This document shows positions 2,076 through 35,043 of a stretch of DNA of 39,620 nt, piece after piece. Both the position numbers and the translations under genes were made by a program. The DNA lies in the IMG/VR virus record IMGVR_UViG_3300045988_070014, positions 1 through 39,620 of that record, one strand, 5' to 3'. This DNA is from a virus. Each line of letters starts with the position of its first letter. The first letter of the stretch is position 1. A model generated the notes under the pieces. That model was given only the letters and a program-made list of their open reading frames with translations. It had not been told where the DNA came from and did not search any database.

Positions 2076-2104
2076 ATTATATCAAAAATAGGTTTGGTTG
2101 TCAA
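2076..2104 (-). promoter_or_regulatory. Consensus sigma-A promoter
   Basis: Minus strand TTGACA-N17-TATAAT with an extended -10 (ttTGATATAAT). Confidence 0.7.
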
Positions 2105-2164: not shown

Positions 2165-2530
2165 TTACTACATTTACTACAAAAACTACACTAATTTCTA
2201 TATAGCAAATATTTATAAAAAAATATATATATAATTTATTATTATAAATAAACTCTTGAAAATAAATGTAGTAAATGTAGTAAATATATATAAAGCTAGT
2301 GATACCAACGGTTTGAAGGGGTTACAAAAATGTAGTAAAAGTGTAGTAAAAAATGTAGTAACCATAAAAATGTAGTAAAGTAATTAATAATATATGAATG
2401 AGTTTTAACAGTTTATCGATAAGTTTTATCATTAAAAATGTAGTAAACTACAAAAATGTAACCGCAAAATGTAGTAAAAATGTAGTATTACTACATAAAA
2501 ATGTAGTAACTGAATCCGAAAATGTAGTAA
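2165..2530. repeat. Iteron array 1 (putative origin / initiator-binding array)
   Basis: 10 forward TGTAGTAA copies (mostly as AAAATGTAGTAA) and 3 inverted TTACTACA copies. An AT-rich tract (aaatatatatataatttattattataaataaa) lies between the inverted and direct sets. The array is immediately 3' of the VapE gene. Confidence 0.85.
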
Positions 2531-2536
2531 TTGAAA

Positions 2537-2564
2537 ATAAAAAAAAGACAGTAAAAATACTGCC
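2537..2564 (-). terminator. Rho-independent terminator after the VapE gene
   Basis: Minus strand GGCAGUA-UUUU-UACUGUC followed by UUUUUUUUAUUUU. Confidence 0.75.
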
Positions 2565-2569
2565 TTAGT

Positions 2570-3853
2570 TTATTCCCAGTAATCTCTTATAAATGGTATT
2601 TTGTAACCACGAATTGATTTACCATCAACTTTATATGGTTGGTTAGGTATTCCTCTCCTCATAAGCTCATTAGCAAGTGCTTTCTTTTCTTTTATATTAA
2701 GCTTTTCAGCTATTTCTGTAAGCTTGTACACTCTCAAGTCGTTACTTTCCCAGTCTACTTTATCATCTAATATGATTGATATATCTGTTTGAGCATTAAA
2801 TTGTCTATTAATTATTTTTTGTTTCGCTTCTTCCTCTTTGGTCAACCAATCGATACTATAATTAGTCAACCACATATCGTATACTGCGCCCCAAAACTCA
2901 AACATATTGAAATTGTCAAACTCTTCTATATTACAAGATTTAACAGGAATTACCCAAAACCTTCTTGAACCTGTTTCGTCTTTTAAGAAATCTTTTTTAT
3001 TAACATTAGCAATATAACTTGTTAGCCTTGGATATATTTCAGCGACACGACCAAACGGAACTCTATATTCATCAGTTGTATTAGTTAAAAACTGCTTAAT
3101 TTTACCTTGGTCAGCTTTTAAAGTTGTATCTAATTCTGCTAACTCAACAAGAATATATTTAGTATTTTGAATCACGCTATCAGTTTTATCAGGGTCTAAA
3201 GATACTCCATCTTTGAACAAGTCATTAAGCGGCATTAATTTACGTGCAAACGTTGATTTACGGCATCCCTGTTCCCCTTGAAGTGTTAATACTCCATTAG
3301 AACTATAACGGTTTTCTAGCTCATTGTGAGCCATTTTAACAACATTTAGAAGCCATTTATAAAACAAAGTGAAATAATACTCCGCATCTTCTAAAGCATC
3401 ATCTTGAAGCGTTAAACACTTTTCAAACACATCAAGCACTATATCGTGATTATTATTTCTATACTTCTTCAACATATCTACAAAGGGGTTTATTTCTTTT
3501 CTATTAGCTATATCAATTAAATATTCGTCGCATACCGCCCTATTAAGATTTAAACCTTCTTTCACTTGTAAATCATATACAAATGTCAGCATCTCACCTC
3601 TTTTTTTAAACTTTCTGCCTTCCATTTGTAAAGTTAATTCATGAGTTATCTTATTCATAACTGGATTTATTCCATAATGATTTAACAAATATTCTAAATT
3701 TGCCATTGTCTTTATTGGAACTGTTCCGCCATCTTTTAAATACTTAACCTCCGGAAATTGTATAAGAGAAACGTTGCTCTTTTTATTCTTAACATCATTA
3801 ATTGAAAAAACTTTTTTAGTGTTTTGCATTTTAATATCCTCCTTATTTACCAT
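2570..3853 (-). CDS. VapE / D5-like replicative helicase-initiator (virulence-associated protein E family)
   Basis: 427 aa. P-loop-like LTLQGEQGCRKSTFARKL and ...GSRRFWVIPV are typical of the VapE family. The more likely start is ATG at 3829 (MQNTKK) after aaggagg. Confidence 0.8.
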   Translation of the reverse strand: MVNKEDIKMQNTKKVFSINDVKNKKSNVSLIQFPEVKYLKDGGTVPIKTMANLEYLLNHYGINPVMNKITHELTLQMEGRKFKKRGEMLTFVYDLQVKEGLNLNRAVCDEYLIDIANRKEINPFVDMLKKYRNNNHDIVLDVFEKCLTLQDDALEDAEYYFTLFYKWLLNVVKMAHNELENRYSSNGVLTLQGEQGCRKSTFARKLMPLNDLFKDGVSLDPDKTDSVIQNTKYILVELAELDTTLKADQGKIKQFLTNTTDEYRVPFGRVAEIYPRLTSYIANVNKKDFLKDETGSRRFWVIPVKSCNIEEFDNFNMFEFWGAVYDMWLTNYSIDWLTKEEEAKQKIINRQFNAQTDISIILDDKVDWESNDLRVYKLTEIAEKLNIKEKKALANELMRRGIPNQPYKVDGKSIRGYKIPFIRDYWE

Positions 3854-3971
3854 TAACTATTTCCATTATAGCGATATGAATAGGTTTTTCACCTCTCCAA
3901 TTATCAAACGCTTTTTTCTCTTTTTCAGTAAGATAGAATTTAACTTGTTTACTTCTCTTACGATTTTTCAT
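3843..3971 (-). CDS. Small ribbon-helix-helix-like protein (42 aa)
   Basis: RBS gaggtg then ATG. Sequence is MKNRKRSKQVKFYLTEKEKKAFDNWRGEKPIHIAIMEIVNGK. The basic N-terminus plus KxVxFxLTxxE resembles an RHH beta-strand. It overlaps the VapE start. Confidence 0.5.
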   Translation of the reverse strand: MKNRKRSKQVKFYLTEKEKKAFDNWRGEKPIHIAIMEIVNGK

Positions 3972-3991
3972 ATTATCACCTCGCAAGACAA

Positions 3992-4020
3992 TAATAACAT
4001 AGTGGGTACACACTTGTAAA
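3992..4020 (-). promoter_or_regulatory. Possible promoter for the RHH/VapE unit (divergent from 4036-4064)
   Basis: Minus strand TTTACA-N17-TTATTA. Confidence 0.35.
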
Positions 4021-4035
4021 GTATTTTTTTATTTA

Positions 4036-4064
4036 TTGACAAAATAATTAAGTAAGTGTATAAT
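4036..4064 (+). promoter_or_regulatory. Conserved-family sigma-A promoter (the only plus-strand copy)
   Basis: TTGACAaaataattaagtaagtgTATAAT (N17), 32 nt upstream of the 4096 ATG. Confidence 0.7.
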
Positions 4065-4095
4065 TAACTTATAAATATTCTTAGGAGGTATTATT

Positions 4096-4374
4096 ATGAA
4101 AGATTATAATTTATATTTAAGTATGAAAGATATAGAAAGATATTCGGATATAGATGAATTTGTTTACAACGAATTGTCTACTGAAAAAACTATAAGGATA
4201 AATTCTATTGGTGATTGGGATGAAGGAGTTGTTTCTGTAAGAGTTGATATATTAGAATTAGAAGCTATCGAAGTTATTTCAAACGCTATAGATGACAATA
4301 TTTTAATAGGTTTCGATTACTTGGGCGGCATAGATACTATAAATTCATTAGGTTTATCAACTTGTTCAAGATAG
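4096..4374 (+). CDS. Hypothetical acidic protein (92 aa)
   Basis: Strong RBS (taggaggt) and its own promoter. The sequence is rich in D/E. Confidence 0.6.
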   Translation: MKDYNLYLSMKDIERYSDIDEFVYNELSTEKTIRINSIGDWDEGVVSVRVDILELEAIEVISNAIDDNILIGFDYLGGIDTINSLGLSTCSR

Positions 4375-4385
4375 GAGGTATTATC

Positions 4386-4598
4386 ATGGGTAGATTTATA
4401 TGTGAAGCTATTCCTTATAACGGATTTAAGGAGAGAATTAAAATATGTAAGGAACTACAAAGGAAAAGAATGAGATTCAGCATAGAAGGAAATATTATAT
4501 TTGTTTATTATAGGAGGGTTGACCTTCTCTTTTTTTTTATGCGATTAAAACAAAAAAAGAAGAGGATTAACCTCTTCGAACATCAAAGAAACTTATAG
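4386..4598 (+). CDS. Hypothetical basic protein (about 70 aa); coding status uncertain
   Basis: Strong RBS taggaggtattatcATG. However, a plus-strand terminator at 4512-4538 lies inside the ORF. Confidence 0.3.
   Translation: MGRFICEAIPYNGFKERIKICKELQRKRMRFSIEGNIIFVYYRRVDLLFFFMRLKQKKKRINLFEHQRNL
4512..4538 (+). terminator. Rho-independent terminator for the plus-strand unit
   Basis: AGGAGG-guuga-CCUUCU stem (one G-U pair) followed by CUUUUUUUUU. Confidence 0.6.
4550..4577 (-). terminator. Rho-independent terminator for the minus-strand small-gene unit
   Basis: Minus strand GAAGAGG-UUAAU-CCUCUUC followed by UUUUUUUG. It overlaps the stop of 4567-4749. Confidence 0.65.
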
Positions 4599-4749
4599 GA
4601 TATAAATTACTTTGATAGCTGTTTATTTCAGTTCCTAAGACACGACAAACATCTTCTGTTTCATAATGCACTAACCAATACTTCTTATCTTTTTCCAATA
4701 TTTTTCTATCAAACTCATCTATCAGGGTCACTTTGCTTCTAATCCACAT
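4567..4749 (-). CDS. Hypothetical protein (60 aa)
   Basis: The aggagg RBS overlaps the end of the upstream small ORF. Translationally coupled arrangement. Confidence 0.5.
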   Translation of the reverse strand: MWIRSKVTLIDEFDRKILEKDKKYWLVHYETEDVCRVLGTEINSYQSNLYPISFFDVRRG

Positions 4750-4758
4750 AAAAACCTC

Positions 4759-4896
4759 CTAAAATCCAAACCAATTAGGTAAATTATAAAACCAATCAGC
4801 TATAAAAGCACCTATAAACGCTATAGTAACAACTAATATTGGTGCTACAACTGTAAAAAACATATTTCTTAAAAACTTTCTATAATTCCATTTCAT
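4759..4896 (-). CDS. Small hydrophobic membrane peptide (45 aa)
   Basis: RBS ggaggt then ATG. Sequence is MKWNYRKFLRNMFFTVVAPILVVTIAFIGAFIADWFYNLPNWFGF, with a single TM helix. Not in the ORF track because it is under 60 aa. Confidence 0.5.
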   Translation of the reverse strand: MKWNYRKFLRNMFFTVVAPILVVTIAFIGAFIADWFYNLPNWFGF

Positions 4897-4928
4897 AATT
4901 AATACCTCCAAATATTTGCTATACCTAA

Positions 4929-4956
4929 ATTATAGCATACTTAATTATATTGTCAA
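4929..4956 (-). promoter_or_regulatory. Conserved-family sigma-A promoter
   Basis: Minus strand TTGACAatataattaagtatgcTATAAT. Confidence 0.7.
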
Positions 4957-4960
4957 CAAT

Positions 4961-4991
4961 AAAATAAAAAAAGAGAGGATTTTTTCCTCTC
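4961..4991 (-). terminator. Rho-independent terminator after the head-gene block
   Basis: Minus strand GAGAGGA-AAAAA-UCCUCUC followed by UUUUUUUAUUUU. Confidence 0.8.
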
Positions 4992-5067
4992 GTCTTAGGG
5001 GTGAGTATATTTTATCAAAGGAGAATTTCATGTCCAACTATATTATACTAAATAGCAATATAAATTG

Positions 5068-5421
5068 TCAACCTTTTAGAATCTGTTCAACTAACTTTTC
5101 GTAATCTTCTCTATAATCCATTATAGCAGGTTTAAGCGTTGGTCTTGCAGGTTGTCTACTCGTCCCATTTTCAAGAAAAATCGAATACGAAAGCGGTGAA
5201 CCTATCACTACTTTATTCTTATCTGCATACCATTGTGTACTGTTTCTAAACCTTCCAGTATCAACAACTTTTTTAGCAGTGATTATCTTTTGCCAAACCG
5301 AAACTATTTTCGTCCCTAAAGCTATAGCGATTTTATTCCCTCTATTCCCCATTTCTTGTTTAAATACGTTGGCGTTATTTTCAAAATTTATTTTCATTTC
5401 TTTTTCTTCCTTTCTTGCCAT
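5068..5421 (-). CDS. HK97 gp10-like tail/neck component
   Basis: The ..VDTGRFRNS..IGSPLSYSIFLENGTSRQPARP.. pattern is typical of the gp10 family. The likely start is 5397 (ATGA overlap with the upstream stop). Confidence 0.7.
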   Translation of the reverse strand: MARKEEKEMKINFENNANVFKQEMGNRGNKIAIALGTKIVSVWQKIITAKKVVDTGRFRNSTQWYADKNKVVIGSPLSYSIFLENGTSRQPARPTLKPAIMDYREDYEKLVEQILKG

Positions 5422-6293
5422 TCTTCAAAACTCATTTTTCTAAGTTTTTCATCAAGTTCTTTTTCTTTTTCTCCTTTTTCGAAACCTATAAATTCAGTAG
5501 TCATAGTACATCTACAACGGATTACTTCACTTGCTCCACCGTTTGGGTCGCCCGGGTACATTAAACCATTACTAAAAAGCTTATCCAAGTCAACTATCTC
5601 GCCGTTAACTCTCTGATGCGTTTCTCTCGTCCTCTTATCCATTGTAGCCAACCATGATTTTTGAATCTTTAATCCTTGTTTTTCTGCAAACTTATAACTA
5701 TCTAATCTACCTACATTTTCTATTCTAGTCGTTTCGGTTCTAGCAATTCTAAGAGAATCATTATAGTTCTTTTCAGTTATCTTTTTAATTCTTGAAGCTA
5801 TCTTTTGCATGCTTTCTCCCTGTAAAAGTCCACTAGCAAGCGCTTTCTTTAATTCCTTATACAAAGCAGTCTTATCTGTTAAATCATCAATAGCCATCAA
5901 AGTAAACGGGTTTATCTCTTCTTTTAATAACAACTTAATAGCGTTTCTATTATAAAGAGTATATCCTATATCTTTAGCAACTGCTTTTTCTACCTCATAA
6001 GCACCCCAGTTATAATTTAAAGAATAAATATCTATCATATCATCGTTCATGATATCCATAGCGACCTTATTGGCATTATTAACAACTAGTGACATTTCTC
6101 TTATAATGGCTTCTAAACGTTTTTTCTGTTGCAATTGATTATATATCTGTTGTGGTTCTTTAGTAGTGTCTATTCGGCTTATAAGGGTATTTAATTTACT
6201 TTTTAATCCCCTTAAAGCATCAGAATATAATTCCTCAATATTCTTTTCTAGCTTAGCAAGGATTTTATCAGTTTCTTTATGTGCTTTATCCAT
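5394..6293 (-). CDS. Minor head protein (Mu F / SPP1 gp7-like)
   Basis: 299 aa, directly after the portal gene. The ...RIARTETTRIENVG...SWLATMDKRTRETH...CRC pattern is typical of Phage_Mu_F. Confidence 0.8.
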   Translation of the reverse strand: MDKAHKETDKILAKLEKNIEELYSDALRGLKSKLNTLISRIDTTKEPQQIYNQLQQKKRLEAIIREMSLVVNNANKVAMDIMNDDMIDIYSLNYNWGAYEVEKAVAKDIGYTLYNRNAIKLLLKEEINPFTLMAIDDLTDKTALYKELKKALASGLLQGESMQKIASRIKKITEKNYNDSLRIARTETTRIENVGRLDSYKFAEKQGLKIQKSWLATMDKRTRETHQRVNGEIVDLDKLFSNGLMYPGDPNGGASEVIRCRCTMTTEFIGFEKGEKEKELDEKLRKMSFEEWQERKKKK

Positions 6294-8053: not shown

Positions 8054-9331
8054 CTAAAAAATTCTATTCGCACTAAAGCTACGTTTCTGTTTTCTTCTTG
8101 CTATATCCATTATAGCATACCTAACCGCGTCTATATAGTGGTCGTTTCCATCGGGATATTTACTTATAAACTGCCCATCTTTATTCATCTCATACTCATA
8201 CCCTATAAATTCCTTAGCGGCGTTTGGGGTTCTTTTCTTATCAATTACAATTTCATCTAACATCTGCAAAAATTTATAAGTGAAATCCCTACTATCAGGA
8301 CCTTTTTTAGCTTTTTGCATATTTAAGCCATACCCTCTCATTTCAGAGATAGATTTAGGGTCAGCACTATCTGCAACAATAGGTTTCTTATAGATATTTG
8401 GTTCTTTTTCCAGTATTTTATCAGTTAGCTTTTTATTGCTCAATCCCTGTTCGTATATTTCATCTATAATATAAAGCTTGTTGTTCTTATAATGGATTTT
8501 ACACCAAGTTGCAGGGTCTATACTAAATCCAAAGTCAACACCATACTCAAATTCCTCCATATTATTTATTTCCTCTTTTGTTATTTCTCTTATAATTACA
8601 TTATCAAATACATTTCCACCAGTTCCAGTTACTTCACCTAAATATTCATGCTTATACGCTTCTTCTTTTACGTTCTTTAGATGTTCAGCTTCTATTATGA
8701 ATTGTTGCCCTAACCAATCAGATGGAACAGTTAAATAGGTACTATGGTGGATAAACCTATCTTCTCTATCAATTAGTTGCTCTTCATTAACCCAGTTATT
8801 CTTAGATTTAGGAGGGTTAAAAGTATAAAACACCCAGTTATCACCATTCTTTCTTATAAAAGACTGTGTCATACTTCTTATCTCTTCCATGCCATTGAAC
8901 TGGTCTAACTCCTCATACCACACAATTCCTATTCTACCGAACGGAACGGTTATACCTTTAGCTTTCATAGGGTCGTCGCAACCTAAAAAGACAATTTCTT
9001 GATTAGTTGGAGTATAAACAATCTTCAAAGGAGATTTATAAACCTTAAAATAACCATTTAATCCTAAATCATTTATAGACCAAATCATCTGATTATAAAC
9101 AGAACCTTTTAATGTCTGCCCTACTTTTCTGACTATAACAGCGTGGCAATCACTATTAGCCATTATAAGAAGAGGAATAACCTTAGATACAAATGAACTT
9201 TTGGTACTTCCTCTCCCTCCTTTAAGCATATAATGGGTGTGATTATGCTCCATAACATCATAAAGTAAATCATCGAAGTTCGGTGCTATTTTCTCCAAAA
9301 AATTAATCTCTCTTGAATACAATGTTAACAC
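8054..9331 (-). CDS. terL: Terminase large subunit (PBSX-like family)
   Basis: 425 aa. Walker A-like KGGRGSTKS, then a C-terminal nuclease region ..DGNDHYIDAVRYA... The start is uncertain (GTG 9331 or TTG 9322). Confidence 0.9.
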   Translation of the reverse strand: MLTLYSREINFLEKIAPNFDDLLYDVMEHNHTHYMLKGGRGSTKSSFVSKVIPLLIMANSDCHAVIVRKVGQTLKGSVYNQMIWSINDLGLNGYFKVYKSPLKIVYTPTNQEIVFLGCDDPMKAKGITVPFGRIGIVWYEELDQFNGMEEIRSMTQSFIRKNGDNWVFYTFNPPKSKNNWVNEEQLIDREDRFIHHSTYLTVPSDWLGQQFIIEAEHLKNVKEEAYKHEYLGEVTGTGGNVFDNVIIREITKEEINNMEEFEYGVDFGFSIDPATWCKIHYKNNKLYIIDEIYEQGLSNKKLTDKILEKEPNIYKKPIVADSADPKSISEMRGYGLNMQKAKKGPDSRDFTYKFLQMLDEIVIDKKRTPNAAKEFIGYEYEMNKDGQFISKYPDGNDHYIDAVRYAIMDIARRKQKRSFSANRIF

Positions 9332-9650
9332 CCTCTACCTTTTGTTCTACTTCTTTTTTATCTGTCCAATCATAGTTATTTTTTAATGCAAATATAATAC
9401 CTGTTGTCGGTTGTCCTGAACTTTGTAATCTTTCTTCCGTATTCATTAGCACTCTTTCTTTAGCTCTTTTTACAGTGCCGAAATACGCTTCTTTTTTACC
9501 ATAGTTTATAAGGGTTTGTCTGTCTATTTCTAAGTAATACGCTAAACCGCTCATAGTCATAGGTTTTTCATTAATTTCACAATACTCAAAATACTCGTCT
9601 ATTCTTCTTTTTAACTCTTCTTCCGTTTTAAATAACAAAGGTCTTCCCAT
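9303..9650 (-). CDS. terS: Terminase small subunit
   Basis: 115 aa. MGRPLLFKTEEELKRRIDEYFEYCE..PMTMSGLAYYL.IDRQTL (HTH), immediately upstream of terL. Confidence 0.8.
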   Translation of the reverse strand: MGRPLLFKTEEELKRRIDEYFEYCEINEKPMTMSGLAYYLEIDRQTLINYGKKEAYFGTVKRAKERVLMNTEERLQSSGQPTTGIIFALKNNYDWTDKKEVEQKVEGVNIVFKRD

Positions 9651-11048: not shown

Positions 11049-11432
11049 TTATTCATCTTCTAAAATTATTTTTGCAACCTTATACCCTTGCCTGTTTTTA
11101 ACATCTTTATCAATTAAATTCTTTGTTGAGCTATCCCGACAACCTAAAAATGCTGATGTTTCTTTTATAGTATCAAACAGTTGTATAATAGGCTCACCCT
11201 CTACATTGCAATCATACACCGCATAACAAACTTTCCTTTGCATTCTAGGTCTTTTCTGTTTTCCCTCTTCAAATTCTATAAATTTCAAATTGCTTCTTTT
11301 GTTTCTTTTATTGCTCTTTATTTGTTTTGATATCATCTTATGATTTATATTCATTAATCTGCCTAAAGCTCGTTGAGAATCCGCTATCGCTATAGGTAAA
11401 CCAAACACATCTTTGTTAAACGCTAGTACCAT
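11049..11432 (-). CDS. DNA-binding protein with two NUMOD1-like modules (nuclease-less homing-endonuclease relative?)
   Basis: 127 aa. Two repeats of the F.S...A...LG.....I motif (FGLPIAIADSQRALGRLMNINHKMISKQI and QLFDTIKETSAFLGCRDSSTKNLIDK...GYKV). No catalytic motif. Confidence 0.4.
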   Translation of the reverse strand: MVLAFNKDVFGLPIAIADSQRALGRLMNINHKMISKQIKSNKRNKRSNLKFIEFEEGKQKRPRMQRKVCYAVYDCNVEGEPIIQLFDTIKETSAFLGCRDSSTKNLIDKDVKNRQGYKVAKIILEDE

Positions 11433-12400
11433 TATTTAATCCTCCTAATCCATTCTTCCGGAATACTTAAATTATATTCTTGCGCTAATATAAACGCCAA
11501 TTTAGAAAAATTAGTAATTCCATAGACTTTTTTAGCGACTGATATTAAATTACCAGTTCCGCAATGTGTAAAGCAAGTGTAAATACCTTTTTCATCATTT
11601 ATAACTAAAGCTCCTTTATTATCTCCACCATGCAAAACACATCTACCAATATAATTACCATTCATATACTTAAATTCCCCGCCTAGATGTTTTTGTATGA
11701 AGTCTTTTAAGCTTATAGATGATATTAGTCTATTTAAACACTCTTCTTTATATTGCGGCTTAATATAATCCTCACCGTCATATTGAGTATATCCTTTTTC
11801 AATAACTTTTTGCTTAGCTTTGTTATCCCTTTTTAGTTTAGATTGATAAGCATTTATAAGTTTTACAATTAATGTACAACTTATAGGAATATCATTCTCT
11901 CTGTAAGTTACTTCTTTATTTGTCCCAGCCCATATGCGATTCGCGTTACTTGTAGCTTGGTCTAAATATTTATTAAATTTCCATTGTAGAGCCTTATACA
12001 ACAACTTATAAGTTTCTACATCAATAGGACTTTCCAATCTATAAATCAATCTGAATTTAGTGTAATTAGTATCACTAAAAGTTGGGTATTCTATTACAGG
12101 GTAAACACCTAGTTTTTTATTTACTAATGCAACCATTTCAAATAATGTAATCTCATTTTCTTTGCTATCTACATCTAAAGCAATACACTCTAAACAATTA
12201 ATGCTGCTTTCAAATATATCTTTACTATCTTCTTGAAATTCTGCTAATAAAACAGAATGACCTCTTTTTAAATATTCTTTTATTTCTCTATAATCAACGT
12301 ATATACAAGGGTAATTTTTCATACCCATTGTAATATCTATCATATCAGTTGCGGTTGGTTTAACTTTATAACCTTTCTGACTTACTTTAATTTTAATCAT
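11432..12400 (-). CDS. DNA primase with a C-terminal CHC2 zinc finger
   Basis: 322 aa. CVLHGGDNKGALVINDEKGIYTCFTHCGTGN matches the DnaG-type CxxH..CFxxCG finger. The N-terminal domain has an acidic ALDVDSKE motif (primase-polymerase-like). Confidence 0.7.
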   Translation of the reverse strand: MIKIKVSQKGYKVKPTATDMIDITMGMKNYPCIYVDYREIKEYLKRGHSVLLAEFQEDSKDIFESSINCLECIALDVDSKENEITLFEMVALVNKKLGVYPVIEYPTFSDTNYTKFRLIYRLESPIDVETYKLLYKALQWKFNKYLDQATSNANRIWAGTNKEVTYRENDIPISCTLIVKLINAYQSKLKRDNKAKQKVIEKGYTQYDGEDYIKPQYKEECLNRLISSISLKDFIQKHLGGEFKYMNGNYIGRCVLHGGDNKGALVINDEKGIYTCFTHCGTGNLISVAKKVYGITNFSKLAFILAQEYNLSIPEEWIRRIK

Positions 12401-17459: not shown

Positions 17460-17487
17460 ATTATAGCATACTTAATTATCTTGTCAA
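17460..17487 (-). promoter_or_regulatory. Conserved-family sigma-A promoter (early operon)
   Basis: Minus strand TTGACAagataattaagtatgcTATAAT. Confidence 0.7.
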
Positions 17488-17594: not shown

Positions 17595-17917
17595 TTACTA
17601 CACTTACTACAAAAACTACATCATTTTCTATATAGCACATTTTTATATAAAATATATATATTATTTTATTACTTATAATAAAGTCTTATAATTTAATGTA
17701 GTAAATGTAGTAAATATATATAAAGCATTGGTATCACTAGCTTACAAAGGGTTTTAAAAATGTAGTAATTATGTAGTAAAAAATGTAGTAAGCTTAAAAA
17801 TGTAGTAAATATTTTAATTAATCATGAATTGATTGGTAACATTTTGTTTATAATTAAGTGTAGTAAATGTAGTAAAACTACAAAAATGTAACTTAAAAAT
17901 GTAGTAAATGTAGTAAT
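17595..17917. repeat. Iteron array 2 (homologous copy of array 1)
   Basis: 10 forward TGTAGTAA and 2 inverted TTACTACA copies, with the same order of sub-blocks and the same AT-rich core as 2165-2530. Confidence 0.85.
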
Positions 17918-17943
17918 AAAAAAAGACACTCTTTCGAGCGTCT
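17917..17943 (-). terminator. Rho-independent terminator
   Basis: Minus strand AGACGCUC-GAAA-GAGUGUCU (8 bp) followed by UUUUUUUAUU. Confidence 0.85.
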
Positions 17944-31585: not shown

Positions 31586-31613
31586 TAAAAAAAAGAGAGG
31601 AATTTCCCTCTCT
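31586..31613 (-). terminator. Rho-independent terminator after the tape measure gene
   Basis: Minus strand AGAGAGG-gaaauu-CCUCUCU followed by UUUUUUUUAU. It overlaps the TMP stop. Confidence 0.8.
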
Positions 31614-33295
31614 TATCTAAACGCCAAAGAAGTCATACGAGAATATTCATCAAATTCACTCTGATGCGGTGCTAAGGTTCTCATCATTTCCTTGCCATCA
31701 ATATAAAATTCTACTGGTCTGTTTGCTAAGCTTTTAATCCAATTTTCTAATTTATCTAACGGTATAACCGCTTCCGCTTGGTTTCCTCTGCCTTTGTAAC
31801 TATCTCCAGCAACATATCCGCCCATAAACGTCGGTTGTGTTACTATACCACCATTGTATAAGTATGGTACTTTAGGAAGATTTACCCCGAAGTGTTTACC
31901 TCCAACCATAGGAATCCAATCAGGAATAGTTACACTTATGCTATTTAGTCCACTTATAGCACTATTAACAAGCCCTATAACTCCATTAAGAGGTGCTTTT
32001 ATAACAGACACTAAACCACTCATTATATTGCCAAATATATCTTTGACCCCTTGCCATGCTCTACTCCAATTTCCCGTAAAAGTTCCAGCAACAAAATCAA
32101 TTATTCCGTTAAATATTCCTTTAATATCTGTCCAAATATTAGAAACATTTCTGAAGAAAGAGTTCATTATATCTCCAAAACCTCCAAAACTTTCTGACCA
32201 ATCTATAGTAAATATACCTTGCAACCAGTCGTCAAATCCTTTGAATGCATCTTTTATATTTTGCCACTTACCATCAACAAATTGTCCAAATCCTATAAAC
32301 GTATTTTTTAAGGAATCAAAAGCTAACTGCCAATCTCCAGTAAATAAACCTTTAAAGAAGTTTAAAAAGTTTATAAATGTATTCTTAGCAAATTCCCAAC
32401 CTAATCTAATATCTTCTAAGAAAAAGTCTAATATACTTCCTAAGAATCCAAATCTTTCTGACCAATCTGTAGCAAAAACATTAGTAATCCATTCTAAGAA
32501 CGAAGAAGCTATTTCTTTCACATTATCCCATAGGTTTATCCAAAAGTTTCTAAATCCTTCCGAAGTATTCCACAGGTATATAAACGCACCCGCTAAAGCA
32601 CCTACAAGCCCTATGACTATCCCTATTGGATTTGCCATAAAAACCGCATTTAATATTGCCATAGCACCACTAAAACTCTTTACCATAGTTAAAGCAGTAA
32701 ATAAAGGTTTTACAAATGCAATTATACCGCTTACAATAGCATAGCCCTTTATAGCCCCTAAATAACCTACTATAACACTTAACGCTAATCCTATCTTCTC
32801 TATAGTACCGTCTAATTTACCCTCCTGTAAAGCCTTAACTAATTTACTTATATTATCAGTAACCCATTTTATAACTTCTTTAAATATAGGGAAAACCTTC
32901 TCCGACATTTCAACCCCCAAACCTTCTAAAGCTGAACCCAACTCTGTCAAACGCCCTTTTAAGTTATCATTCATAGTTTTAGCCATCTCTTCTGCCGCAC
33001 CTTGAGAATTGGCAATTTTATCACTTAACTCGTCAAACCTCTCCCCACTATTAGCAAGTAAAGCGTTAGCACTCTTTAAGTCAACTTTGTTAAATAATTC
33101 GCTTAGAACTTTAGTTCTTTCTTGTTCTGTCATAGTCCCAAGTATTTTATTTAAATCTTTAAATATTTCATTTGTACCCCTCATATTACCGCTTGCGTCA
33201 TAAACTTCTAAACCTAATTTTTTCATAAGTTTAGCCGCTTTATCAGTCGGAGAACCTAAAGAAAGTATAATATTTCTTAATGCAGTTCCACCTTC
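31613..33295 (-). CDS. Tape measure protein, exon 2 (560 aa)
   Basis: Begins EGGTALRNIILSLGSPTDKA, then TM helices and W/F-periodic repeats typical of TMPs. In frame with exon 1 after the intron is removed. Confidence 0.85.
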   Translation of the reverse strand, partial: EGGTALRNIILSLGSPTDKAAKLMKKLGLEVYDASGNMRGTNEIFKDLNKILGTMTEQERTKVLSELFNKVDLKSANALLANSGERFDELSDKIANSQGAAEEMAKTMNDNLKGRLTELGSALEGLGVEMSEKVFPIFKEVIKWVTDNISKLVKALQEGKLDGTIEKIGLALSVIVGYLGAIKGYAIVSGIIAFVKPLFTALTMVKSFSGAMAILNAVFMANPIGIVIGLVGALAGAFIYLWNTSEGFRNFWINLWDNVKEIASSFLEWITNVFATDWSERFGFLGSILDFFLEDIRLGWEFAKNTFINFLNFFKGLFTGDWQLAFDSLKNTFIGFGQFVDGKWQNIKDAFKGFDDWLQGIFTIDWSESFGGFGDIMNSFFRNVSNIWTDIKGIFNGIIDFVAGTFTGNWSRAWQGVKDIFGNIMSGLVSVIKAPLNGVIGLVNSAISGLNSISVTIPDWIPMVGGKHFGVNLPKVPYLYNGGIVTQPTFMGGYVAGDSYKGRGNQAEAVIPLDKLENWIKSLANRPVEFYIDGKEMMRTLAPHQSEFDEYSRMTSLAFR

Positions 33296-34383
33296 CATTT
33301 TGTTATCGTAAAGGCTCTTTATCCTCTACTTCTATATGTTTCCATATAGTTCAGACTATATCTTCACCCTTAACTTAATATTAGGGTGTTCGGCACTCGT
33401 GTTCGTATTATTGTTTGTCATAACTCAACGATTAGTCGTTACACCTTCTATTTACTTTTATTGACTTTCAATAGCTTGGCTCGGTATTGCCATATTATAC
33501 TCTTCAAATTTTTCTTTAACCTTATCTATTATTTTATTTTTATAATCCTTTATATCTGTTCTTACAAATTTAATTCTTATTAAAGGTATATTATTTCTTT
33601 TACAAAATTCATTTTTTATTTTATCATTAGTTTTAGTTTTTTTGAAATTTTCTTCATCATCATTAAAAGCGAATTTATTACTAAAATGTTGCGAGCCATC
33701 ATACTCCATTAAACATACCAAATCTTTTTCTTCATTAAATATAGCGAAATCAAACGGTAAAGATCTTTTATTTCTGCATTCTTTTATTCTATATTGTTCT
33801 TCAAAAACAAATTTAGAAAGTGTTAAAAATTCCCTTATAACTTCTTCTCCTTTTGACCTATAACAATGAGGACATCTTGTGCCTTTTATAAAATCGTAAG
33901 GAGTTGGATAAAATTCTTTACCACATTTAAGATGTTTAATAACTATAGGCTTCTTACTTCTACTATAATTACTTAAACAAAGGTAACCTTCTTTTTCACA
34001 AATTTCTTCTATTATTTTCTTTTTTTCTTCGGATTTCCCTTGTTTTTTTGAATTACTTTCTGCACTTCTCAAATATCTTTCATTCGGACATCTTTGTCCA
34101 TTTAAAAACGCTTTCCTTGACATTTTAAATATATTTCCACAAATATTGTGTTTCAACAACATAGGTGTTGAATTGTTTTTATATGTCATTTCCAAAACTT
34201 CGTATTCATCACCTACAACATTTTTCACTTCTTGCTTGAAAATTTCAATTGTTATTTTCATAATATCACCTCTTGATGATATTATACCGCTCTTTATTCC
34301 GTTTTGTAAAGTATAACTTAGGTTTTTACCGAATTCACCGAATTTTTATTCATAGATATTACTATCTAAGCGACCAAAAGTTT
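33296..34383 (-). mobile_element. Group I intron (IA-like) with an internal homing-endonuclease ORF
   Basis: U precedes the 5' splice site and G ends the intron. R-like GUAACGACUAAUCG (33429-33442) and S-like AAGAUAUAGUCU (33353-33364) form P7. P8 is 33365-33388; GNRA-capped hairpins lie at 34353-34368 and 33332-33349. Confidence 0.85.
33458..34261 (-). CDS. Intron-encoded homing endonuclease (Vsr/PD-(D/E)xK-like nuclease plus two zinc-ribbon modules)
   Basis: 267 aa. Duplicated KH.(I/K)CG..F....F..G.RCP modules. C-terminal SLPFDFAIF...LMEYDGSQHF...NDKIKNEFC...IPLIRI is colinear with the Vsr-type PD..(F/I)(V/E)(Y)DG..H core. Confidence 0.7.
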   Translation of the reverse strand: MKITIEIFKQEVKNVVGDEYEVLEMTYKNNSTPMLLKHNICGNIFKMSRKAFLNGQRCPNERYLRSAESNSKKQGKSEEKKKIIEEICEKEGYLCLSNYSRSKKPIVIKHLKCGKEFYPTPYDFIKGTRCPHCYRSKGEEVIREFLTLSKFVFEEQYRIKECRNKRSLPFDFAIFNEEKDLVCLMEYDGSQHFSNKFAFNDDEENFKKTKTNDKIKNEFCKRNNIPLIRIKFVRTDIKDYKNKIIDKVKEKFEEYNMAIPSQAIESQ

Positions 34384-35043
34384 AGCCCCTTTTATACCTG
34401 CATCCGCCAAAATTCCAAGTTGTGTATTTAATTCTACTGTTCCACCTTTAAGAGATTTCGCAGTTCCTCCAACCGTTAGGATAGCTTCCCCTAATTGTGC
34501 TACATTTGTATTTGCTTTCTGTGAAGTTTTAGCCATTTGGTCGGTGAATCCTTCAAGTTGGTCTGTTTCTATTCCTAAAGCCGACATAGAATCCGTAACT
34601 AAGTCAGAAGCATAGGCAAGGTCAATTCCTCCCGCCGCTGCCAAGTTAAGAACTTTAGGTAATGCACTTATAGCTTTATCTGTATCATATCCTGCAAGTG
34701 CCAAGTAGTTCAACGCTTCAGCTGATTGTGAAGCACTATACTTAGTTGTAGCTCCCATTTGTTTGGCTGCATCCGAAAGTTTTTTAAAGTTAGAATCAGA
34801 AGCATCCCCAACTATACCCATTGTTGCGGCTACTTGATCCATACTTGCTTCAAAATCCATACCAACTTTCGTTGCTGCACCCGCTGCAACTCCTAGACCT
34901 CCAGCTATAACTGCACCAGCAACTTTAGTAGCTTTTCCCATTCTACTCGCAACACTTTCAGTTTTCTTTCCACTTTCATCTATTTTACTATTATAGTTCT
35001 TATTGTCAATGCTTATTTCAGCCATTAAAGTGAATAAATTCAT
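34384..35043 (-). CDS. Tape measure protein, exon 1 (220 aa)
   Basis: Ends ...NVAQLGEAILTVGG...QLGILADAGIKGA, the TP901-1-type TMP core. The unspliced frame runs 5 more codons to a stop at 34366. Confidence 0.85.

Follow-up and report, generated by a model that had tools for sequence, protein, structure and literature searches.

Two iteron arrays in the genome of a clostridial siphophage

The DNA analyzed here (IMG/VR virus record IMGVR_UViG_3300045988_070014, positions 1 to 39,620; the whole 39,620-nt stretch is referred to as the window) had been described from its sequence as carrying an origin-like array of short repeats (iterons) immediately 3' of a VapE-type helicase gene. The window shows 95-98% identity to phages of the phiCP39-O/phiCP26F group, which are siphophages of Clostridium perfringens, and its proteins include the small and large terminase subunits (TerS and TerL), an SPP1-type portal, a MuF-like protein, and scaffold, capsid, tail and lysis proteins, followed by early genes, with nearly all genes carried on the minus strand. 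Judged by this gene content, the phage is complete, and the window represents a lytic member of the phiCP39-O group of C. perfringens siphophages. The preliminary description had likened the array to the origins of phage-inducible chromosomal islands (PICIs) and plasmids, of which the likeness in layout still stands and the element type does not, as a PICI or satellite context was rejected because the window holds a full lytic phage gene set. The VapE gene (2570-3853, minus strand), which encodes a superfamily 3 (SF3) helicase of 427 aa, and the array (2165-2530; array 1) sit within the head-morphogenesis cluster, between the MuF-like gene (5394-6293; the counterpart of SPP1 gene 7) and the scaffold gene (1326-1916). 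Array 1 begins 40 bp past the VapE stop codon.

The iteron TGTAGTAA occurs 26 times in the window when both strands are counted, compared to an expectation of 2.57 ± 1.40, and a count of 26 was reached in none of 100 dinucleotide-preserving shuffles. All but one of these exact copies fall in two arrays: 13 in array 1, and 12 in a second module (array 2; 17595-17916, plus strand) that was omitted from the preliminary description. At the left edge of array 1 is an inverted iteron pair (TTACTACA; 2165-2181, minus strand, starts at 2165 and 2174, i.e., 9-bp spacing) with a degenerate third inverted copy, aaactaca, at 2183-2190. The adjoining AT tract (2182-2266; 5-10% G+C) is opposed on its far side by a direct pair on the plus strand (2267 and 2276; span 2267-2283). 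Four further plus-strand iterons (2331, 2342, 2354 and 2371; span 2331-2378) have spacings of 11, 12 and 17 bp that match the register of array 2. The distal part (2439-2530), which differs from array 2, has plus-strand iterons at 2439, 2470, 2502 and 2523, and a head-to-head element, tgtagtattactaca, composed of a one-mismatch copy (TGTAGTAT) at 2481 and a minus-strand copy at 2488. Exact counting thus bore out the anatomy first described for this array (inverted pair, AT tract, ten forward copies and head-to-head pair). The AT tract had also been suggested as a DNA-unwinding element, and it remains a candidate: its core (2192-2252) is 5% G+C (z 4.1), and by nearest-neighbor energy the tract ranked as the least stable duplex of the window at 60 and 100 bp and the second least stable at 80 bp (z about 4.1-4.2).

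Array 2 is paralogous to array 1 across about 320 bp and lies 15.4 kb away from it. Its layout repeats that of array 1, with an inverted pair (17595-17611), an AT tract, a direct pair (17697-17713), four iterons (17761-17808) and two further pairs (17859-17916), so that here too opposed iteron pairs surround the AT tract. When aligned, the arrays share 81% mean column identity with ten iterons in register, and the first eight iterons are spaced identically (9, 93, 9, 55, 11, 12 and 17). Iteron columns are 94% identical versus 75% for spacer columns (Fisher p 5e-5). Together, the two AT tracts form the two least stable duplex segments of the 39.6-kb window at 60, 80 and 100 bp (z 4.0-4.3). Both arrays were found in 11/11 sequenced phages of the group.

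One reading of such a pair is that the arrays are a dispersed repeat with no role in replication, for instance a miniature mobile element, a hotspot of recombination, or a site used for partition or packaging. The two copies do lie in direct orientation, array 1 is tandemly duplicated in phage phiCP9O, and a conserved box shared by the arrays (see below) is also found outside origins, beside other genes. However, iterons and their spacing are preserved here while the spacers drift, no terminal inverted repeats or target duplications surround the module, the small terminase gene, the usual location of a pac site, is elsewhere (9303-9650), and no partition ATPase was found among the proteins scanned (about 50 of the window open reading frames, ORFs, compared to Pfam and PHROG). 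We therefore consider a dispersed repeat very improbable. The phiCP9O duplicate (JF767210, about 250-1020) has a period of about 406 bp and reflects either a genuine duplication of the origin or an error of assembly. Array 2 was also considered as an ancestral post-VapE origin, for which no evidence was found: no VapE pseudogene lies upstream of it, and the small ORF downstream has no clear homology to the ORFs that follow the arrays of relatives. No Rfam family matched at gathering score anywhere in the window, with just a meaningless match (E 8.8) inside the array, and no tRNAs were found in the window.

VapE and the arrays of related phages

VapE matched PF05272 (E 2e-40), in agreement with the initial identification of the helicase gene. 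When a profile of VapE homologues was searched against the PDB (hmmsearch), one solved structure was recovered, 7pds (E 6e-24), which is the complex of Rep1 from the staphylococcal pathogenicity island SaPI1 with DNA (PMC9371898). An AlphaFold2 model of VapE, generated with 64 homologues, had a mean per-residue confidence score (pLDDT) of 87 and ended in a strand, two helices and a two-strand wing (residues 373-420; nt 2594-2737), i.e., a predicted winged helix. Foldseek analysis of the model again placed 7pds at the top, over the full length (template modeling score, TM, 0.65-0.68; E 2e-16), with NrS-1 and the poxvirus D5/E5 helicases next; sequence identity between VapE and Rep1 is only about 15%. 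On the strength of the model, VapE is structurally homologous over its full length to Rep1, the initiator-helicase of SaPI1, and is the proposed initiator of the phage. No other initiator-type protein was detected among the ORFs scanned.

SaPI Reps are self-loading SF3 helicases that also act as initiators, and their C-terminal winged helix reads penta- or hexanucleotide iterons (PMC9371898). A SaPI ori has six to twelve iterons immediately downstream of rep, an AT-rich center, and at least two iterons on each side in opposite directions, with the primase gene located upstream of rep (PMC9371898). The window shares with this replicon a homologous SF3 helicase, for which a C-terminal winged helix is predicted here, a candidate origin directly downstream of the initiator gene, an AT-rich center, opposed iterons, and short iterons (5-8 bp) repeated a dozen times. 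The SaPI-like layout proposed at the outset is therefore present in sequence, and array 1 shows every sequence-level feature of a SaPI ori except primase adjacency, the DnaG-like primase of the window (CHC2 zinc ribbon; 11432-12400, minus strand) being unlinked from VapE. Other differences are that SaPIs are helper-dependent islands whereas the window is a complete lytic phage, and that the module here occurs twice per genome, has 8-mer iterons and includes an additional 18-bp box in each array. The zinc ribbon of the window primase lies at its C-terminal end (residues 218-315); in canonical DnaG it is found at the N-terminus.

To compare the module across lineages, contigs were fetched whose VapE proteins are 43-66% identical to that of the window; scanning viral contigs by VapE alone gave only near-identical phages, and the distant loci were reached through protein homologues and their contigs. 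The closest of these, L020 (VapE 66% identical; 7.6-kb contig, on which no second array is visible), has the layout of the window (a 42-aa ORF, VapE, array, scaffold) and the same iteron, TGTAGTAA. Eight lineages with VapE proteins 43-50% identical share the order primase, VapE, array, with the DnaG-like primase directly upstream of rep as in SaPIs. Their iterons are GGTAAC (L021), GGTAACC (L022), TGTACCC (L023), TGTAGCA (L024), TGTAAC-type (L027 and L028), AGTAACT (L029) and TGTAACC (L030). In another lineage, L154, in which the gene upstream of VapE was not examined, VapE is likewise followed by an array of GGTAACC iterons. A second array with matching iterons was present in six of these metagenomic lineages, before the scaffold gene in L021, L022, L024, L029 and L154 and between lysis and early genes in L030; for L023, L027 and L028 the contig ends. 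Iteron sequence therefore varies by lineage, and the arrays of one genome always vary together. The post-VapE arrays measure 270-400 bp and have a common layout of iteron cluster, iteron pair, AT tract and opposed pair. An array directly follows the VapE stop codon in 10/10 lineages examined, including the lineage with a relocated VapE. Judging from these gene orders, VapE in the window lineage has left the primase and now abuts the array that precedes the scaffold gene. A prophage with a different head module (L025) has just a few opposed repeats around an AT core, and sampling by scaffold protein produced seven loci with one new informative lineage.

Comparison to L020 showed that conservation across the locus is uneven. 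DNA identity is 97-98% in the 42-aa ORF and 95-97% in the scaffold gene, falls to 56-79% in the VapE body, and rises to 88-89% over the last 150 nt of VapE, which encode the winged helix; it is mostly 87-91% in the array and drops to 69% over the distal iterons. In the VapE protein, identity is 93% for the last 56 residues and 58-64% for the remainder. By this pattern, the winged-helix end of VapE and the array have been inherited together as a unit, whereas the motor domain has diverged or been replaced. Together with the Rep1 homology and the predicted winged helix, this co-conservation supports the earlier proposal that VapE is the likely binder of the array.

A different phage protein could instead read the iterons of what would still be origins, with VapE recruited as the helicase. 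Candidates are the ribbon-helix-helix (RHH)-like 42-aa ORF, an XRE/helix-turn-helix (HTH) protein or an unannotated early protein. In its favor, winged-helix similarity is not sorted by iteron type, SaPI1 Rep1 discriminated poorly between origins in vitro, to the extent that a possible unidentified specificity factor was raised by its authors (PMC9371898), and the 42-aa ORF (3843-3971, minus strand) overlaps the VapE start. This ORF had been named alongside VapE for binding assays, but a role as binder was not sustained: its RHH-type match (NikA-like, E 0.0096) is faint and below cut-off, and it is confined to phages with the window-type layout, being absent from L021-L024 and L027-L030, which retain their arrays and thus argue that it is not the conserved binder. 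The joint conservation of winged-helix end and array despite a diverged helicase body, and the full-length match of the VapE fold to Rep1, likewise favor VapE, and we regard another reader as quite unlikely. An R or K residue in the wing was also tried as a predictor of iteron class and was rejected after four further lineages did not fit.

A related arrangement was observed on pTM2 (NZ_CP101639), an 8.2-kb circular plasmid of Terrisporobacter mayombei that carries VapE, GTGGGACAGTA iterons (some copies opposed) and a gene for a phage major capsid protein. Its VapE and iterons are 1.3 kb apart, so that the support it lends is weak, and it looks like a satellite or mini-phage replicon.

The cargo of the segment around VapE and array 1 differs between relatives. 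Variation among close relatives (L001, L005 and L007) was located to 3854-5067, from the MuF/gp10-like genes to VapE, where phiCP39-O and phiCP26F have an HNH endonuclease, phiCP13O and XP41-N3 a PAPS reductase, and the window two small plus-strand ORFs (4096-4374 and 4362-4598) that run opposite to nearly all genes. Elsewhere in the window, the tape-measure gene is split (31613-35043, minus strand), with PhageMin_Tail positions 1-133 in ORF 34366-35043 and positions 133-200 in ORF 31613-33298. Between the pieces lies a 267-aa DUF2726 ORF (33458-34261), and the gene of phiCP39-O is uninterrupted; the split looks like an intron or homing-endonuclease-type insertion. In the related phage CPQ4 (30444-32520), the large terminase gene is annotated as two pieces that flank a homing endonuclease gene.

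A conserved box shared by the arrays

In addition to iterons and AT tract, each array contains a single copy of a box (CTAGTGATACCAAYGGTT; 18-bp form CTAGTRATACCAAYGGTT) that occurs nowhere else in the window. In array 1 the 16-19-bp box reads GCTAGTGATACCAACGGTT (2295-2313, plus strand), and in array 2 (17726-17741, minus strand) it occupies the corresponding place in the opposite orientation. The box is kept in relatives with different iterons, where it often stands on both sides of the AT tract. An exact-pattern scan of a viral contig collection identified the box in 51 stretches (L031-L081) compared to 6 for the reversed pattern, an 8.5-fold difference. In bacterial genome contigs, 67 matches were found against about 69 estimated by chance, and because these are at chance level, the box is considered a viral feature.

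Sixteen of 53 viral box instances were in iteron-dense DNA, versus 3.8% of windows drawn at random from those loci and none of six controls. These iteron-embedded boxes accompany at least ten unrelated iteron sequences, in AT-rich as well as GC-rich contigs, and three of them come after 830-aa primase-VapE genes. Nine box instances lie at most 50 bp from the 3' end of YonO-like RNA polymerase genes (PF05183 match), with an HU-like gene nearby in three of the nine. The sequences flanking the box frequently pair into a co-varying stem: six or more of eight pairs are present in 27 of 62 unique instances, compared to 0-9 in slid registers. The core of the box fits WATCAANNNNTTR, the IHF consensus, a fit that serves as a lead rather than a test; clostridia have HU and are not known to have IHF. 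A second conserved motif of the AT tract, TTTCTATA, was rejected as it was not enriched (near 15% of box instances vs 11% of background windows). String searches of the literature for the box gave nothing relevant. The contig of one box locus (L033, positions 1-67) starts with an Illumina adapter joined to phage DNA 13 nt before a box copy, and this junction may reflect a real DNA terminus close to the box or an artefact of assembly.

Tentatively, the box could be an undescribed and widely shared origin component that is read by something other than the iteron-specific initiator, although we hold this to be less probable than not. Possible partners would be an HU/IHF-like architectural protein or, if the box acts as a single-strand hairpin, the machinery of priming or nicking for which it would be a signal.

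The arrays as candidate replication origins

Each array is flanked by transcription signals. A terminator-like hairpin (2545-2566, minus strand) lies between VapE and array 1, at the end of the VapE transcript, and 60 bp beyond the array, towards the scaffold gene, is a consensus promoter-like site (TTGACA-17-TATAAT, 12/12; 2076-2104, minus strand). Likewise, array 2 is immediately preceded, in the sense direction, by a terminator-like hairpin (17924-17943, minus strand), and a second consensus site (TTGACA-16-TATAAT, 12/12; 17460-17487, minus strand) follows the array and precedes genes for a 73-aa ORF, a 71-aa ORF, Gp157, ERF and an ERCC4-type nuclease, with SSB further downstream. Beside array 1, another terminator-like hairpin (2031-2011) occurs within about 65 nt of the 2076-2104 site, and a second promoter-like site (1998-1969) precedes the scaffold gene. 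The stretch 2104-2003 (minus strand) resembles a leader or a short RNA and includes ACCTCC; L020 keeps the T-run of the 2031-2011 hairpin with the hairpin sequence itself changed.

Such surroundings would also suit operator or enhancer arrays, through which a lineage-specific transcription regulator would time the downstream promoters (the scaffold/capsid operon for array 1 and the recombination/replication operon for array 2) without any part in initiation. Both arrays do stand between a hairpin and a 12/12 consensus site, the arrays of relatives are also at operon boundaries, and the phage encodes several small HTH-type proteins. Conversely, an 85-bp tract of 5-10% G+C with opposed iterons is the anatomy of an origin and not of an operator, an array follows the stop codon of the Rep1 homologue in every lineage examined, and no regulator gene holds a fixed position relative to the arrays. 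Both roles can also coexist; Rep proteins of iteron plasmids autoregulate as well. We consider an exclusively transcriptional function unlikely.

Based on sequence and homology, arrays 1 and 2 are probably two copies of a SaPI-type replication origin module served by VapE, a reading with which the computational tests of the first proposal are in agreement. Following the SaPI precedent, VapE would act as self-loading SF3 helicase and initiator in one, its C-terminal winged helix reading the TGTAGTAA iterons on both flanks of the AT tract (roughly 85 bp). The complexes so formed would melt the tract and the helicase would load there, after which the DnaG-like primase of the phage would prime and the host replisome synthesize DNA. 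Several points weigh against this proposal. The literature on these phages gave no binding, marker-frequency or plasmid-replication data; the hairpin and consensus promoter at each array would also fit a transcriptional control region; the window primase is 7.6 kb from VapE, unlike in SaPIs and in the relatives; and the model is incomplete in that it assigns the conserved box no partner. In addition, L021 and L022 share GGTAAC iterons, but their C-terminal domains are about 52-55% identical, no closer than to that of L023. Because winged-helix similarity does not sort cleanly by iteron type, no recognition code is claimed.

Two origins in a siphophage genome have a precedent in SPP1, which has oriL and oriR (PMC6316719, PMC3485210). 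SPP1 oriR lies between gene 7 (MuF-like) and the scaffold gene 11, where moron genes 8-10 interrupt the virion-assembly genes (PMC6316719), and the SPP1 record shows a repeat- and AT-rich intergenic region, presumed to be oriR, after gene 7. Binding of gp38 at oriR has been proposed to stall the fork and lead to a recombination-dependent switch to concatemer synthesis (PMC3485210, PMC6316719). The phage studied here resembles SPP1 in having two dispersed modules of repeats and AT-rich DNA, 13-15 kb apart, in a siphophage whose portal, MuF and scaffold genes are of the SPP1 type; in the position of one copy in the late region, between MuF-like and scaffold genes and accompanied by moron genes; and in a recombination module of single-strand annealing protein, nuclease and SSB. 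In contrast, SPP1 replicates with the initiator gp38, the loader gp39 and the DnaB-type helicase gp40. No initiator, helicase-loader or DnaB-type helicase family was detected by the Pfam and PHROG scans of about 50 window ORFs, in which no comparison specific to gp38, gp39 or gp40 was run. SPP1 oriL is furthermore inside gene 38 whereas the array here is intergenic, and the repeat sequences are unrelated.

In the satellite phage P4, two separate loci, ori and crr, act together, and their octamer iterons are bound by a primase-helicase that belongs to the same broad superfamily and has its origin-binding domain at the C-terminus; crr serves as an auxiliary site and is not a full second origin, and P4 alpha has its own primase domain. 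Both copies in the clostridial phages keep the AT tract, the opposed iteron pairs and the box, and two origin modules are therefore favored over one origin with a crr-like auxiliary site. In the Streptococcus thermophilus phages Sfi21 and 7201, non-coding repeats just after a VapE-type primase gene are the origin, which is known in a single copy.

More speculatively, the module would have been duplicated such that one copy follows VapE at the MuF/scaffold junction and the other stands ahead of the recombination genes. The second copy may fire, block forks, handcuff the first copy or regulate the adjacent promoter. Its most likely role would be one proposed for SPP1 oriR, as a second firing site or an initiator-bound fork block, and a fork stalled there could hand replication to ERF, the nuclease and SSB for concatemer synthesis.

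No mention of an origin or of these repeats was found in the searchable papers on phiCP39-O-group phages, which are studied as a source of therapeutics against C. perfringens, and the arrays are the first origin candidates for this group. For applications, a cloned array might titrate the initiator and thereby confer phage resistance, and an array combined with VapE might seed a clostridial vector. The conserved box provides a separate lead to a possibly general origin component and is, with the conserved position of the second origin, the part most worth following up. Overall, the pri-rep-ori replicon, known from staphylococcal pathogenicity islands, seems to serve clostridial phages as an ordinary replication module. 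Two origin copies, one of them in the slot of SPP1 oriR and with an initiator unrelated to gp38, would represent convergent design, and the role proposed for oriR in the concatemer switch could then be tested in an independent second system. SPP1-like phages may, as a general design, carry a duplicate origin at the MuF/scaffold junction, whatever their initiator.

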